DNA from: a virus
Length of the DNA stretch: 64,000 bases
Virus record (IMG/VR): IMGVR_UViG_3300045988_131485
Reading direction: 5' to 3' (one strand)
Shown: positions 11,302 through 18,964 of the stretch, in pieces
How positions within the stretch are numbered: the first letter of the stretch is position 1
How the letters are laid out: every line of letters begins with the position of its first letter
Program-made: the position numbers and the translations under genes
Notes under the pieces: generated by a model
Told to the model about the DNA's origin: nothing
Database searches by the model: none
What the model saw: the letters and a program-made list of their open reading frames with translations, nothing else

Positions 11302-11317
11302 GCTAACAGCAATTTTA
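11302..11317 (+). repeat. T-type element core copy (GCTAACAGCAATTTTA), about 50 nt upstream of tRNA-Ser
   Basis: Matches the CGCTWACAGCAAT core that is shared with the tRNA insertions. Confidence 0.6.
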
Positions 11318-11365
11318 CAACTATCAAACTTTTACTTTGACTCAATGCGTCTCGTTGAAAAGCGT

Positions 11366-11456
11366 GGAGGGGTAATCCTAACTGGTAAGGAAGCAGTTTG
11401 CTAAACTGTTAGTAATCCGAAAGGGTGTGTGGGTTCGAGTCCCATCCCCTCCGCCA
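11366..11456 (+). tRNA. tRNA-Ser (GCU), class II, CCA encoded
   Basis: Acceptor ggagggg/cccctcc. Anticodon stem gcagt/actgt with loop TTGCTAA. Long variable arm with GAAA loop. T arm gtggg-TTCGAGT-cccat. G73 followed by CCA. Confidence 0.85.
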
Positions 11457-11495
11457 AGCCGCAATAGCGGCGAACTCTTTATCACCTCCTCTCTC

Positions 11496-11535
11496 TGACG
11501 GCGGGAAAGACCGCTGACGGCCCGGAAAGACGGGC
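11496..11535 (+). repeat. two tandem TGACG-stem-GAAAGA-stem hairpins
   Basis: TGACG GCGG GAAAGA CCGC, then TGACG GCCCG GAAAGA CGGGC. A third copy on the minus strand at 12344-12364 lies directly upstream of a tRNA. Confidence 0.6.
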
Positions 11536-11540
11536 GGCAT

Positions 11541-11651
11541 GGGAGCGTCCGGTGGCAGCTCATAACGTGTAATCGACGGTGGACACGCACAGCAATTTTA
11601 CCTTGAAAGTCTGCAAAACTTTTGCTTACGGTTCGACTCCGTAGCTCCTAA
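11541..11651 (+). ncRNA. tRNA-like element; the 3' half resembles tRNA-Ser(UGA), the 5' half is not foldable by eye
   Basis: Loop CTTGAAA, stem part ac/gt..gtctg, hairpin gcaaa-act-tttgc, T arm tacgg-TTCGACT-ccgta. gggagc pairs with gctcct. Contains a T-type element (11587-11600). No canonical D arm. Confidence 0.35.
11587..11600 (+). repeat. T-type element core copy (GCACAGCAATTTTA) preceded by the stem CGTGT..ACACG
   Basis: Same architecture as the tRNA insertions. Confidence 0.55.
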
Positions 11652-11861
11652 AAAACCGTCATCAATCTATAAGAAGGGTCGTGTGTGTCATGAAGAAGTT
11701 CCTGGCTATCGTTCTGTGATTCAAAGTGATCAGCGGCAGCGGCGTCCAGCGCCGGGTATGTGGAGAAAGCCATGAATAGAATACGAGACAAGCCCTAAGT
11801 CATCTTCGGATGACAGTACAGTAATGAATGCGACGATGAATGAACAGTAACGAATTGGGGC

Positions 11862-11877
11862 ACTAACAGCAACCATC
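11862..11877 (+). repeat. T-type element core copy (ACTAACAGCAACCATC); AATGCG lies 32 nt upstream
   Basis: GAATGCG..(32 nt)..CACTAACAGCAAC. Confidence 0.5.
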
Positions 11878-15670: not shown

Positions 15671-15671
15671 T

Positions 15672-15687
15672 TAGTGGCAAAGTAAAT
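15672..15687 (+). repeat. junction motif copy (TAGTGGCAAAGTAAAT)
   Basis: Directly after the stop of the cysteine desulfurase gene and before the RBS of the RNA ligase gene. Confidence 0.6.
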
Positions 15688-15705
15688 TAACAAGGAGTGA
15701 ATATA

Positions 15706-17105
15706 ATGTATTGTGCCTATGTTACCAGGATTCACAATCTGAGGAAGCATACCAATGCCGACCGGCTGCTCTGTGGCGAATGTTTCGGTAATACGGTGAT
15801 TGTGGATCTCGGCACCGACCCTGATCAGCTGGGCGTGTACTTCCCTACCGATGGCAAACTCGGTTTGGAGTTCGCACAGAAGAATGACTTGCTGCGGCGC
15901 AAGGATGAGAACGGCGCTCCGGCTGGCGGATACCTTGACCCGGAGAAGCGGAATATTAAGGCTCTCAAGCTCCGGGGCGAGAAGAGCGACGGTCTGTTCC
16001 TCCCTCTCTCCTGTTTAGCTTCTTTTACCGATATCAAGAAGCTCCAAGAGGGCGATACGATCTCTGTGTTGAACGGTATCACTATCTGCGAGAAGTACGT
16101 ACCCGCCGTCAAACGCGCCTCCGGTAGTGGGGGGGTGGCAATCATGTTCGTAAGCGTTCTGATCCTATCTCCCCGCTCTTCCAAGAACACGCTGACACGG
16201 AGCAGTTGGCCTACAACCTCTCCGCATTCCATGCTGGGGATCTGGTAGAAGTTACCCTGAAAATGCACGGAACTTCTCAGCGTACCGGCTATCTGCCTGT
16301 GTTGCAGGGCTATAAATATCGGAACCGTATGGAAAAGCGGCTCTATGAGAGTCGTAAGACCCCGAATGTGATTCGTTCCAAAATCAAGCGGGCACCCATC
16401 TATGATTGGGGCTATGTTACCGGAACCCGCCGCGTGGTTCTGGATACCTTCGATGAGGGAGGCTTCTACGGTAATAACGCTTTCCGCGAAAAACACGCCA
16501 ACGTCTTTGAAGGAAAGCTCCACAAGGGAGAGACGGTCTACTACGAGGTTGTTGGCTTCACTGACGATGGTACGCCCATCATGAATCCCGGAAACAACTC
16601 TAAGCTGAACGACAAGGAGTTTACTAAACAGTACGGTAAAACCACCACATTCAGCTATGGCTGCGCTCCCGATGGTAAGGAACATCCCAAGTCCGATCTT
16701 TTCGTTTACCGCATGACAATGACCAACGAAGACGGTGATGTGGTGGAGTATCCGCCCGACTTTATGCGCTATCGTTGCGAACAGATGGGCGTCAAATGCG
16801 TCCAAGTGTTCTGCCGCACTATCATCCCGGACTTCTACCAGCTCCCCGACGATGTTGGATCTCCGCAGGCAGTGAACGCCGGCGAGTATGTGAAGAAGCT
16901 GGCTGAGAATTTCTACGACGGCCCCGATCCTGTCGGCCATACCCATGTTCGGGAAGGTGTCGTGTGCCGTATTGTCAACCGTCCCAAGTTCGCCGCCTAT
17001 AAGCATAAAAACTTTGCGTTCAAGGCGCTGGAGGGACTGATCAAAGACACCGCCGCCGCGCCTGATATGGAAGAAGCTCAGGATGTTGGAGAACAGAATG
17101 GATGA
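15706..17105 (+). CDS. RNA ligase, Rnl5 (DraRnl/DRB0094-like); reading frame broken at a G7 tract (16129-16135)
   Basis: N-terminal OB-like domain (NADRL.., VYFPTDGKL, KALKLRGEKSDGLFLPL). After the G-run, in the other frame, come motif I TLKMHGTS, EGVVCR and YKHKNFAFK. One extra G fuses the two frames. Confidence 0.8.
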
Positions 17106-17214
17106 AAAAGTCGTTTTTGGCTTTATCAACAACTTCAAAGCTGGGCAGATATGGAGCAGCTTGACTCAAGCCTATACCGGAGAATGATCCGGGATTGTAT
17201 CAAAAAGGAGCGAT

Positions 17215-18048
17215 ATGACGATGACGACTTTGATCCAGAATGAGCAGAAGCGCCAGAAGATTATGGCGCGGATGCGGGAACATCTGGTGCCCGTCTTGGA
17301 GCATTGCAGGGGAGGCTGGGTCGGCCTCTTCCTGCAAGGTTCTCAGAATTATAACCTTGACTATGAGGGTAGCGATATTGACACCAAGGCAATCATGTTG
17401 CCCAGCTTTTCCGATTTCGTGTTGAACGCCAAACCTCTCAGCACTACCCACATTATGGAGAATAACGAACACGTGGATTTCAAAGACATCCGCCTCATGT
17501 TTGACTGTATCAAGAAGCAGAATGTCAACTTTGTTGAGATCCTGTTCACCCCTTACTCCATCATCAACCCGGAGTATGCCGATCTTTTCCAGCCTGTTCT
17601 GGACGCTCGTGAAGAGATTGCCCGATACAACAACTACGCCGGGATGAACTGCATTATGGGTATGGCTCTGGAAAAGCAAAAGGCAATGGAGCACCCCTAC
17701 CCTGCCACAATGGACAAGATTGAGGCATTTGGGTATGACCCGAAGCAGCTTCACCATGCTCTGCGGCTGCGGGAGTTTATGACCCGTTACGAAGCCGGCG
17801 AGCCTTACGCTGACTGTCTTATCAGTAACCAGTGTGATTATCTCAAAGAGGTGAAGCGCGGTTGCTACTCTTTGAAAGAAGCACGGGCACTGATGAGCAC
17901 TGCAATTCAATCTATGACCGAAGACAAAAAGCGCTATATGGATACGGTGTCTGTTTCGATCAACCAGCACGCCAATGAGGTACTGCAAAAGGCTACCGTT
18001 GAAATTCTCAAACGATCCTTCTTAAAGGAAATCCAAGGAGGAGAATGA
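17215..18048 (+). CDS. Pol-beta-superfamily nucleotidyltransferase (RlaP-like, RNA-repair associated)
   Basis: GLFLQGSQNYNLDYEGSDIDTKAI carries the GS..D.D nucleotidyltransferase motif. Sits between the RNA ligase and the kinase-HD protein. Confidence 0.65.
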   Translation: MTMTTLIQNEQKRQKIMARMREHLVPVLEHCRGGWVGLFLQGSQNYNLDYEGSDIDTKAIMLPSFSDFVLNAKPLSTTHIMENNEHVDFKDIRLMFDCIKKQNVNFVEILFTPYSIINPEYADLFQPVLDAREEIARYNNYAGMNCIMGMALEKQKAMEHPYPATMDKIEAFGYDPKQLHHALRLREFMTRYEAGEPYADCLISNQCDYLKEVKRGCYSLKEARALMSTAIQSMTEDKKRYMDTVSVSINQHANEVLQKATVEILKRSFLKEIQGGE

Positions 18049-18049
18049 G

Positions 18050-18964
18050 ATGCCGATGTTTTACATGATGGTTGGCCTCCCTGGTAGCGGGAAGTCATTC
18101 ACTGCCGAAAGCATCCCTAACGCCGTCGTCCACTCCAGCGATGCGATCCGTGCCGAAGTTCTTGGTGACGAGAACGACCAAACCCAACAGGACTTGGTTT
18201 TCCAAACCCTTCACAAAAGGGTTTTGCAGGATCTGGTGGATGGCAAGGATGTGGTGTACGACGCAACCAATATCAACTACAAGCGCCGTATCGGATTCCT
18301 TGATCGTATCCGAGCGCTCCACAAACATGATTTGCGTACAGTATGTCTTTTCATGGCGACGCCCTATGAGGTGTGTTTGGAGCGCAACAATAATCGGGAA
18401 CGTTCTGTCCCGGAGTCTGTAATCCAAAAGATGTACTTCAAATTCGATGTTCCTATGATGGCAGAGGGTTGGGATGAAATCAGGATCGTGGGTGACGAAG
18501 ATCGCCACGACCAGATTGATACCCTTATGCTTCGTCTCTCCAAGCTGGAACATGATAACCCGCACCATGAGTACACGGTTGGTCAGCACTCTATGACGGC
18601 ATGGCAGTATCTGATCAGCCACTATAAAGGTGCCGATGCTGCTCTGCTCCGCGCCACGCTGTTGCACGATATTGGCAAAGAAAAGACTAAAGTATTTCAT
18701 AACATCAAAGGCAACCCCACTGAGATCGCCCACTTCTATCATCATGAGCGTGTAGGAGCTTATGACAGCTTCTGCTATACCGGCGATCTCAGTCCTAACC
18801 AGCGCCTTACTGTGGCGCTGCTGATCCGCTGGCATATGTGGCCGTATGCGGTTGAAAAGTCAGATAATCCGAGTAAGACGGTTAGCAAAATCAAACGTCT
18901 GCTTGGTAATGATATCTGGAACCAGGTCATGGTGTTGAACGCCTGTGACCGCAATGCACACTGA
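18050..18964 (+). CDS. polynucleotide kinase (P-loop) fused to an HD phosphohydrolase domain (RNA end-healing enzyme)
   Basis: Walker A GLPGSGKS with a T4 Pnk/AAA_33-like N-terminal half. The C-terminal half has HD motifs (LLHDIGK, HHERVGAYD). Confidence 0.75.
   Translation: MPMFYMMVGLPGSGKSFTAESIPNAVVHSSDAIRAEVLGDENDQTQQDLVFQTLHKRVLQDLVDGKDVVYDATNINYKRRIGFLDRIRALHKHDLRTVCLFMATPYEVCLERNNNRERSVPESVIQKMYFKFDVPMMAEGWDEIRIVGDEDRHDQIDTLMLRLSKLEHDNPHHEYTVGQHSMTAWQYLISHYKGADAALLRATLLHDIGKEKTKVFHNIKGNPTEIAHFYHHERVGAYDSFCYTGDLSPNQRLTVALLIRWHMWPYAVEKSDNPSKTVSKIKRLLGNDIWNQVMVLNACDRNAH

Follow-up and report, generated by a model that had tools for sequence, protein, structure and literature searches.

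A covarying ACAGCAA RNA module in interrupted tRNA genes and beside Ro-like genes of gut phages

We analyzed an island of RNA-related genes (positions 11,302-18,964) in the 64,000-nucleotide (nt) IMG/VR record IMGVR_UViG_3300045988_131485, hereafter called the window, which derives from a gut phage. The island carries interrupted tRNA genes, a gene for a Ro-like protein of the DUF2828 family and genes for RNA-repair enzymes. The inserts of 43-51 nt that interrupt the tRNA genes are copies of one conserved RNA module, not ordinary introns. This module, built around the motif ACAGCAA, also occurs on its own outside tRNAs, including in the leader of the Ro-like gene. It is a previously undescribed small RNA module: Rfam 15 has no match to it, returning only tRNA at E <= 1 in this region of the window, and we found no description of it in the literature searched by motif sequence, DUF2828 and phage tRNA introns. 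We tentatively read it, with a probability of about 0.45, as the cognate RNA partner or operator for the Ro-like protein, with some of its copies fused to tRNA bodies. As a whole, the island is best explained as a phage locus for tRNA maintenance and RNA repair, of a type already known, joined to a new RNA component.

Related loci (43) were recovered from IMG/VR using the DUF2828 protein as a query, while a megablast search against GenBank phages gave no match. The relatives that cover the upstream region share one gene order on a single strand: tRNA-Ser, a tRNA-like gene (type D), tRNAs A, B and C, and a 518-residue DUF2828 protein. A segment of this region is inverted in the window and, once it is turned back, tRNAs A, B and C and the start of the DUF2828 gene lie on the plus strand, which agrees with the orientation restored in an earlier, sequence-only reading of this DNA. 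Every item in the island gene list of that reading was recovered by searches with ARAGORN, Rfam, Pfam, PHROG and TIGRFAM.

The ACAGCAA module inside and outside tRNA genes

The three interrupted tRNAs that had been predicted, with inserts of 43-51 nt, all give full-length Rfam matches (46-50 bits), and their inserts are 51, 43 and 47 nt long in A, B and C, respectively (Table 1). By our reading of the sequence, the insert of tRNA A (12903-12953) is placed after U33 and is followed by AGG-G37-A38, that of tRNA B (12523-12565) lies between positions 28 and 29 and leaves the loop CUGUUAA and the inner stem intact on its 3' side, and that of tRNA C (approximately 47 nt, 12258-12304) is on the 5' side of the anticodon loop. 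What the earlier reading had called a tRNA-like element is present and can be described more precisely as a fourth insert-bearing tRNA-like gene. This type D gene has an acceptor stem, a T arm and an intact Cys-type GCA anticodon arm (AAAGU-CUGCAAA-ACUUU), with a 42-nt module (11564-11605) between the D region and the anticodon stem. The insertion points, read in the same way, are thus 26/27 in D, 28/29 in B and around 33/34 in A and C. The anticodons of the orthologs are NGG for A (AGG, GGG, UGG), GUU, UUU or UGU for B, GCC or UCC for C, and GCA, UGA, GGA or GGG across the 10 aligned loci for D. Aligning the interrupted and uninterrupted tRNAs of the same phage was uninformative on the insertion points, as they are not close paralogs, and an exhaustive deletion scan with ARAGORN was too permissive to fix splice sites.

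The module consists of a covarying helix, which we call H, with the flanks AAU and UAACAGCAA. Helix H has 5-9 bp and its sequence varies freely, with AAU 5' of one strand and UA-ACAGCAA 3' of the other. These parts come in two circularly permuted topologies. In the first, found in four genes of the window, the module forms a hairpin set within the anticodon arm of a tRNA body; in relatives, such inserts read as an A-rich run, AAU-G-Y-G, a stem-loop, C-R-C and UA-ACAGCAA. In the second, it is a stand-alone RNA of 55-70 nt whose two ends form helix H, and which occupies leaders of tRNAs as well as the 5' leader of the Ro-like gene. There, the 7 nt before NN-ACAGCAA pair with an AAU-preceded segment located 30-45 nt downstream, so that the same helix and single-stranded flanks are connected the other way round. 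The copy in the tRNA-Ser leader (module 1), which has orthologs in all relatives, exemplifies this arrangement: its helix H (GAGGCGC/GCGTCTC) has UA-ACAGCAA after the 5' strand and AAU before the 3' strand, and it encloses a hairpin (UCAAA-CUUUUAC-UUGA(A)) that resembles an anticodon arm. The core RCRCNNACAGCWA, or close variants of it, has 8 copies between 11.3 and 13.0 kb and none elsewhere in the 64 kb, all of them co-oriented once the inversion is undone. The motif shared by the inserts is far from a chance occurrence. A covariance model of the stand-alone form (R1) found no further copies within the window.

The structure of the module was assessed in both topologies. We aligned 30 distinct inserts with MAFFT, ignoring pairing, and found that the outer five pairs of the stem are paired in 94% of the cases, against 73% in shuffled sequences and 29-51% when the partner strand was slid; these stems have 34 double-sided changes, and none of 500 shuffles reached the observed score. 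For the stand-alone form, an unbiased scan of 113 ACAGCAA cores in the 2.6 kb upstream of DUF2828 genes (19 loci) revealed a perfect 7/7 complement nearby for 58% of the cores, against 10% in permuted or shuffled controls. Compensatory changes affect 7/7 helix pairs in 28 aligned stand-alone modules, of which only the diversity of pair types counts as evidence because these modules were preselected for pairing. An anticodon-arm-like hairpin, defined by a stem of 4 bp or more and a loop of 7 nt that has U as its second and a purine as its sixth nucleotide, is present in 17 of 40 stand-alone modules (3.6 +/- 1.8 in shuffles). An exact-pattern scan of IMG/VR gave mostly chance matches, as expected from the information content of the pattern, and only the long-stem matches internal to tRNAs were used.

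Phages of this clade also have a separate array of approximately 22 uninterrupted tRNAs (contigs of L017 and L020; L139) with a few modules in its spacers. In the relatives L052, L116 and L139, ACAGCAA modules are found in a few spacers of this second, canonical array, e.g., between tRNA-Pro and tRNA-Asn.

Table 1. Features of the island and of its flanks in the window (ORF, open reading frame; SD, Shine-Dalgarno sequence).
Feature	Position	Strand	Evidence and remarks
Stand-alone module 1, tRNA-Ser leader	11297-11353	+	Sequence; model R1 51 bits (own training sequence)
tRNA-Ser(GCU), uninterrupted	11366-11456	+	ARAGORN and Rfam (50.7 bits); kept in all related loci
Two hairpins with GAAAGA loops	11497-11536	+	Between tRNA-Ser and type D; 10-locus alignment
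Type D tRNA-like gene, degenerate	11540-11651	+	ARAGORN at lowered threshold; 10-locus alignment
Stand-alone module 2	11857-11911	+	Helix H GGGGCAC/GUGUCCC; R1 45 bits (own training sequence)
Ro-like gene, N-terminal fragment	11863-12141	-	Strong SD; codons 1-73 genuine, translation identical to L002 residues 1-73
Inverted segment (1.1 kb) with 12-bp inverted repeats	11923-13082		AAAGAGCCATTT at 11923-11934, complement at 13071-13082
Short stand-alone module, GGGCA..UGUCC around UA-AACAGCAA...	12172-12207	-	Ro-like 5' leader, 31 nt before ATG at 12141
tRNA C, Gly GCC, encoded CCA	12215-12338	-	Rfam 49.5 bits (match 12218-12338, full-length)
tRNA B, Asn GUU	12478-12594	-	Rfam 46.3 bits, full-length
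tRNA A, Pro-like	12863-12986	-	Rfam tRNA 49.8 bits, full model
Hairpin-type module, AUGCGU-loop-ACGC-AG-ACAGCAA	13006-13032	-	About 19 nt upstream of tRNA A, outside any tRNA
Ro-like gene, remainder from K70 onward	13071-14420 (ORF 12960-14420)	+	Pfam DUF2828 C-terminal part and DUF7788/vWA
NifS/IscS-type cysteine desulfurase	14504-15670	+	PF00266 Aminotran_5 4e-68; TIGR03402 6e-102; DndA-like 8e-89
ATP-dependent RNA ligase, Rnl5-like (DraRnl/NgrRnl), frameshifted	15697-17105	+	phrog_968 'RNA ligase' 3e-64
Pol-beta-type nucleotidyltransferase, probable divergent RlaP relative	17215-18048	+	GS-x10-DID; phrog_388 3e-15
5'-OH polynucleotide kinase with putative C-terminal HD phosphoesterase	18050-18964	+	P-loop GLPGSGKS; PF13671, PF01966

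The Ro-like protein and its genomic association with the module

The intact copy of the Ro-like gene in L002 matches DUF2828 and DUF7788/vWA in Pfam (E-values of 1e-33 and 1.5e-42), with a weak match to VWA_2, and the gene matches phrog_850, annotated as RNA-binding protein, at E 3e-139. Pfam returns DUF2828 and DUF7788 alone, not the TROVE domain (PF05731), and a profile of the protein searched against PDB sequences reaches TROVE proteins at E 0.84 at best. We modeled the intact homolog P0002 with AlphaFold2 (alignment of 37 sequences, mean predicted local distance difference test score, pLDDT, of 76.7). Its nine best Foldseek matches in the PDB are all Ro60 (E 3e-7 to 2e-4), cover the full length (about 500-580 aligned columns) at template modeling (TM) scores of 0.36-0.48, and include the Ro60 of phage phiRo60 (9l5y, E 3e-7), Xenopus Ro (1yvr, 1yvp, 2i91), Deinococcus Rsr (2nvo) and human Ro60. 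Together with the DUF7788 and VWA_2 hits, these matches indicate the HEAT-repeat ring followed by a vWA (metal ion-dependent adhesion site, MIDAS) domain that is typical of Ro60. Since all these fold matches are Ro60 while the sequence profiles miss TROVE, the DUF2828 protein is predicted to be a Ro60-fold protein outside the TROVE sequence family. The sequence-only reading had called it Ro/TROVE-like and proposed a structure search as a check, whose outcome is in line with the proposal.

Homologs of DUF2828 are present in at least 701 GenBank phage records, some of which are annotated as 'Ro-like RNA binding protein', as well as in thousands of metagenomic sequences. The phages include Listeria P100/A511-like, Enterococcus, Bacillus, Staphylococcus and FelixO1-like phages, mycobacteriophages, and others. 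In some assemblies (P0003; 12 contigs of up to 193 kb), the DUF2828 ORF continues after ...GFSPNI into a phage-integrase domain, which points to the insertion of an integrase-bearing element at the gene's 3' end.

The module precedes DUF2828 genes well beyond the closest relatives. A leader module is found before genes whose products are 34-70% identical to the Ro-like protein (L039, L040, L047, L048, L076, L111, L124, L159), and also in cultured phages. Enterococcus phage EF1 has one module 45 nt before the DUF2828 ATG, and in Listeria phage P100plus three tandem modules precede the ATG by 74-283 nt and an RtcB gene follows 1.3 kb downstream. Bacillus phage PJN02 has several upstream copies: the nearest confirmed helix with a normal loop length is about 590 nt before the ATG, and there is a further ACAGCAA core 31 nt before it whose assigned helix rests on an atypically long loop. 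The presence of a structured module directly upstream of DUF2828 in very distant phages strengthens the analogy with Ro and Y RNAs that had been drawn from the window alone.

To quantify this association, we searched 589 kb of ligase-centred loci with a covariance model (E <= 1e-3) and obtained 16 matches, all on the coding strand. Thirteen of them precede DUF2828 by less than 2 kb, in the same orientation as the gene, and come from the seven loci that hold its 5' region; the other three flank a lone tRNA in L192. The covariance model found no module in six loci that have tRNAs and lack a DUF2828 gene.

Two other RNA elements were observed near the modules of cultured phages. In the locus of P100plus (L242), positions 1285-1836 match the ROOL RNA (RF03087, E 3e-16, 86 bits, just below the gathering score) between the phage tRNAs and the ACAGCAA modules; this match is probably the highly transcribed 'non-coding' region 26,236-26,727 of the related phage CKA15. 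In the locus of EF1 (L240), an unannotated tRNA-like sequence at about 4646-4706, with an acceptor stem, a D arm and a T arm and without an anticodon arm, is located around 10 nt upstream of the ACAGCAA module and DUF2828, and recalls the tRNA-like domain of YrlA.

Possible roles of the module

In the reading that we favour, the module would be an RNA ligand and operator of the Ro-like protein and a functional analogue of Y RNA or YrlA. The stand-alone copies would be mini Y-like RNAs, and the copy in the leader of the Ro-like gene itself would control it by feedback or through processing. As putative chimeric tRNA/Y-like RNAs, the insert-bearing tRNAs may tether the Ro-like protein to tRNA-recognising enzymes or offer anticodon arms to these enzymes. 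The ligase, the RlaP-like protein and the kinase-HD protein would restore tRNAs that host anticodon nucleases have cut, as in T4 or in rsr-yrlA-rtcBA, with no splicing involved. We rank this interpretation first because of the Y-RNA architecture of the module, its Ro-adjacent location, and the precedents of phiRo60 and of a Listeria phage. Y RNAs are encoded beside Ro genes and mimic tRNA (PMC4201824). Phage phiRo60 protein binds two Y-like RNAs (Yrl1 and Yrl2) encoded upstream of its own gene (PMC12135203), and the Listeria phage homolog has an HHpred match to Rsr and abundant upstream noncoding RNAs, among which Y RNAs are suspected (PMC12282133).

The likeness to these systems involves both partners and their surroundings. 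On the protein side there is a ring-type protein with HEAT repeats and a vWA domain, judging from the fold match. On the RNA side there are small structured RNAs encoded immediately upstream of the Ro-like gene on the same strand, with a 7-bp covarying terminal stem that joins the 5' and 3' ends around a loop with a conserved single-stranded motif, and some of these candidate partners are tRNA-like. A gene for an RNA ligase lies close by, just as the RNA-repair genes for RtcB/RtcA accompany Ro60/Rsr in bacteria; this ligase is Rnl5-like in the window and RtcB in P100plus. The differences are also clear. By sequence, the protein belongs to DUF2828/DUF7788 instead of TROVE. The module occurs in many copies (8 per locus) and in two permuted topologies, one of them within otherwise complete tRNA genes. 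The likeness to tRNA is unevenly distributed, since the insert-bearing genes are complete tRNA bodies whereas the stand-alone modules have at most the anticodon-arm-like hairpin.

Several observations weigh against a Y-RNA-like role. The link between module and protein is purely one of genomic association. The motif of the module, UA-ACAGCAA, differs from the GNCGAA or CGAA of known Y RNAs, and neither the motif GNCGAA(N)G/CGAA nor a match to the Y-RNA covariance models (Rfam, E <= 1) was found. There is no ACAGCAA module upstream of DUF2828 in one FelixO1-like phage and two mycobacteriophages, so that the pairing of module and gene is not universal in the family. A few modules occur in tRNA arrays far from any DUF2828 gene (L052, L116, L139, L192), and these also fit a general role in the processing of tRNA transcripts. 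Finally, the anticodons read after the insert stay within one amino-acid family in A (Pro NGG, with G37) and in C (Gly GCC/UCC), which suggests, from sequence conservation, that at least tRNAs A and C are real decoders, now or recently. If they are, the insert would have to be removed.

Such a removal is the basis of a rival explanation, in which an endonuclease would recognise the module and cut at the two exon borders, after which the kinase-HD protein would heal the ends and the Rnl5 ligase or the host RtcB would join the exons. This would produce functional tRNA-Pro, tRNA-Asn and tRNA-Gly and a type D tRNA-like RNA with a Cys anticodon, with a predicted exon-exon junction in tRNA B of ...GAGCGCG joined to GGACUGUUAA..., and the intron could keep anticodon nucleases away from the phage tRNAs or set the timing of tRNA expression. 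One contiguous excision indeed restores a canonical anticodon arm in B (CGGGA-CUGUUAA-UCCCG) and D, and plausibly in A and C, where the anticodon family is kept across relatives as said above. The tRNA bodies are well conserved, a full predicted heal-and-seal set is encoded 1.5-6 kb downstream of the tRNAs, and 'enigmatic' tRNA introns have been reported in Lak phages (PMC6784885). However, the module also occurs outside tRNAs, in leaders and in the 5' region of an mRNA, where there is nothing to splice. The insertion positions differ between genes, the spacing between the conserved motifs and the presumed splice sites is not fixed (3-8 nt and 5-12 nt), and the canonical U33 is not always available for A and C. 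No bulge-helix-bulge (BHB)-like or other common exon-intron pairing was seen when reading the sequences of types A-D and their orthologs, and Pfam, PHROG, TIGRFAM and the fold of the neighbouring protein orf305 reveal no endonuclease family among the proteins of the island. Two relatives (L012 and L016, whose contigs are outside the 80 best ligase loci) keep the interrupted tRNAs and have two small ORFs in place of the ligase, and relatives hold a separate full set of uninterrupted tRNAs. The inserts do resemble archaeal and eukaryal BHB introns, bacterial group I introns and the introns of Lak phages in being short insertions in or beside the anticodon loop of otherwise canonical tRNAs, and their variable positions recall non-canonical archaeal tRNA introns. 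Yet, they lack the BHB-like junction and a splicing endonuclease gene, are far too small for group I introns (with no Rfam match), and, unlike tRNA introns, exist independently outside tRNAs. The proposal of the sequence-only reading that the cassette performs Trl1-like splicing is thus weakened by the stand-alone modules, the differing insertion points, the relatives without the ligase and the lack of an endonuclease candidate. We regard splicing as unlikely, and quite unlikely in the specific form where module-type introns are excised by an endonuclease, the exons are rejoined by the kinase-HD protein with Rnl5 or the host RtcB, and the Ro-like protein acts as an intron-recognising chaperone.

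The module could also be a signal for RNA processing, i.e., a tRNA-like 'punctuation' cut by RNase P, RNase Z or a dedicated nuclease, or a small self-cleaving ribozyme. A polycistronic transcript of the tRNAs and the repair operon would be cut into units, and the linkage to the Ro-like gene would be a mere by-product of its position where the tRNA cluster ends. The copies located in tRNA leaders, in spacers and just before the first gene of the operon fit this view, as do the copies in tRNA arrays without a nearby DUF2828, a helix H with the 7-bp length of an acceptor stem and usually a G after it, and the circular permutation of connectivity, which is typical of small ribozymes. On the other hand, no Rfam ribozyme or other family matches the module even at E <= 1 (and none at E <= 0.5 in the three loci of cultured phages), the six loci with tRNAs and without DUF2828 have no module, and a single cut within the anticodon arm destroys a tRNA rather than processing it. 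We find this explanation decidedly unlikely. A decoy or sensor role, where the assorted anticodon arms (Lys, Asn, Thr, Cys, Ser, Pro, Gly) titrate host anticodon nucleases, or where their cleavage signals an attack and switches on the repair operon, would account for the enrichment of anticodon-arm-like hairpins in the modules, for the fast change of anticodons on a conserved body in B (GUU/UUU/UGU) and D (GCA/UGA/GGA/GGG) and for the copy in the operon leader. But only about 40% of the stand-alone modules have the hairpin, the loops of A and C are broken by the insert, and the invariant ACAGCAA is left unexplained. This role, which we consider very unlikely as the main explanation, is compatible with the Y-RNA-like one and not exclusive of it.

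The last explanation, an action at the level of DNA as a dedicated promoter or as a recombination site of the shufflon or integron type, is to us extremely unlikely. The motif is strand-specific and upstream of genes, the recombinase-fold protein orf305 is encoded 0.4 kb upstream, and the region contains an inversion. Still, helix H covaries in both topologies, which indicates an RNA (or single-strand) structure, the junctions of the inversion are at a separate 12-bp repeat and not at the motif, and orf305 best matches non-catalytic repressors (YopR, MrpR, SroF). More specific candidates were rejected as well. A general phage promoter does not agree with a motif that is confined to the tRNA/Ro region of the window and flanked by a covarying helix. 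A sigma-54 promoter does not agree with the spacing, which reads GG-N8-GC and not N10. An integron attC site, a shufflon sfx site or a REP-like element does not agree with the lack of R' and R'' boxes, with stems that differ while the flanks are kept, and with inversion junctions located elsewhere.

A covarying RNA module that tracks DUF2828 genes provides a concrete, testable candidate ligand for these proteins and explains the 'interrupted' tRNA genes throughout one clade of gut phages, and it can be studied in cultured Listeria and Enterococcus phages. If it is a Y-RNA analogue, the biology of Ro and Y RNAs extends to a new protein branch and to a new RNA architecture that includes chimeric tRNA/Y-like RNAs. 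Should the module be an intron instead, protein-dependent tRNA splicing would be revealed in phages, and bacteria and their phages would have their first Trl1-like pathway of this protein-dependent kind.

The repair cassette, its disruption in this genome and neighbouring genes

The enzymes encoded downstream of the Ro-like gene had been interpreted as a heal-and-seal set, and our searches agree in that a kinase, an HD domain, a ligase hit by the DraRnl model and a nucleotidyltransferase related to RlaP form, as far as can be predicted, an RNA-repair set of a known kind. The kinase domain has the P-loop of 5'-OH polynucleotide kinases and matches the kinase of Clostridium thermocellum Pnkp (CthPnkp, PDB 4gp6, 2.8e-13), TIGR04075 (2.8e-17) and AAA_33 (5.6e-19). 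The HD domain, which had also been foreseen, matches PF01966 with 23.7 bits (cutoff of 22), HDIG, and the HD region of CCA-adding enzymes at 3e-7. The Rnl5-like ligase has the ligase motifs KMHGTS (KxxG motif I) and EGVVCR (EGVV motif IV) in its translation, besides its PHROG match, with the correction that the reading frame is not intact in the window. The intact 467-codon ORF of L002 matches PF09414 RNA_ligase (E 5.7e-5). The match of the ligase to the DraRnl model TIGR02306 (RNA_lig_DRB0094) has E 9e-11 and 41 bits for a cutoff of 151, and its N-terminal domain matches residues 74-126 of NgrRnl (5cot) at E ~0.1 and PF21189 weakly. The proposed RlaP-like nucleotidyltransferase has no Pfam match itself, but 6 of its 29 homologs match PF10127 RlaP (best 9.7e-6), and the PHROG match is to a nucleotidyltransferase family. 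The NifS-like gene was also identified as proposed.

This set resembles T4 Pnkp and Rnl1, as well as the Rnl-RlaP-PNK/phosphoesterase RNA-repair cassettes (PNK, polynucleotide kinase) reportedly described by Burroughs and Aravind in 2016, in its 5'-OH kinase, its predicted 2',3'-phosphoesterase, its ATP-dependent ligase and its probably RlaP-type nucleotidyltransferase. The phage tRNAs alongside and the presence of Thg1 and HAD_SAK_2 elsewhere in the genome are further likenesses. Both of the latter were placed correctly by the sequence-only reading, near 52966 and at 36537: Thg1 spans 52882-53820 (E 3e-30) and HAD_SAK_2 spans 36537-36998 (E 7e-29). The set differs from T4 in that the phosphoesterase is an HD domain C-terminal to the kinase and in that the ligase is Rnl5-like, and a NifS gene is embedded in it, unlike in T4 or the Rnl-RlaP cassettes. 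The phosphatase of T4 Pnkp is of the DxDxT type, and Runella HD-Pnk has its domains in the opposite order to that of the phage kinase-HD protein. The phage combination of Rnl, RlaP, PNK/phosphoesterase, ROT/TROVE, Thg1 and tRNAs was described previously (Iyer et al. 2021, PMC7824862), and the protein cassette of the island, as predicted from its domains, matches such phage RNA-repair arsenals.

In this genome, the Ro-like/repair system is switched off or damaged, because an inversion splits the Ro-like gene and a slip in a poly-G tract shifts the frame of the ligase. Comparisons with L002, L003, L010 and L013 using blastn show that the segment 11935-13070 is inverted. The inversion parts codons 1-73 of the Ro-like gene from the remainder, and past codon 73 the N-terminal ORF crosses the junction into unrelated sequence. 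The same junction is present in an independent contig (ERZ809296 NODE_219) that is 96.7-98.9% identical to the window and has a different allele of the downstream part of the gene. Both gene fragments are intact in both contigs, and since the junction recurs in this way we conclude that the inversion is a natural variant, either recurrent or spread by recombination. It may be a recurrent or reversible ON/OFF switch. The 12-bp repeat at its junctions is confined to the closest clade. Another homolog, P0001, was rejected as a second example of the inversion since it is merely a normal gene shortened at its N-terminus. As for the ligase, the window has a G7 tract (16129-16135) where six relatives have G8, so that the gene reads as two ORFs (15697-16248 and 16206-17105). 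Either a sequencing slip or slipped-strand variation of the contingency type could account for this. Beside the tract, L001 has an in-frame deletion of 3 nt, and the ligase also has an in-frame, divergent mosaic patch of 120 nt (16798-16916).

Other elements of the region were observed along the way. The GAAAGA-loop hairpins show compensatory changes across relatives (GCGG/CCGC vs GTGG/CCAC). An ORF of 55 codons between tRNAs A and B (12648-12815, minus strand) has a strong Shine-Dalgarno sequence and would encode a hydrophobic peptide; relatives such as L008, L010 and L013 lack this ORF and have 4 nt between A and B. Farther away, a PD-(D/E)XK nuclease gene (35773-36540) is directly 5' of HAD_SAK_2 and a primase-helicase gene (Toprim and DnaB-like, 37063-39030) is 3' of it, which places this RNA-repair HAD domain inside a replication module. 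The gene block of the NifS/DndA-like protein also encodes a PAPS-reductase/PP-loop protein (19507-20481), where the PAPS_reduct match comes in two stretches with a weak GH-E/HNH-like match in between, and the pair could serve tRNA thiolation or a Dnd-like sulfur modification of DNA. Upstream of the island, orf305 (9981-10898) was rejected as an invertase or endonuclease, as its model (pLDDT 94) best matches YopR, MrpR and SroF, the non-catalytic, recombinase-fold master repressors of SPbeta/phi3T. It is near a divergent HTH_3 gene (8833-9219, minus strand), which suggests a lysogeny control region of the SPbeta type. This protein is clade-specific, with 96 homologs among 5.8 billion proteins, and the two that are named come from Oscillospiraceae or Flavonifractor, which hints at such a host for the phage.

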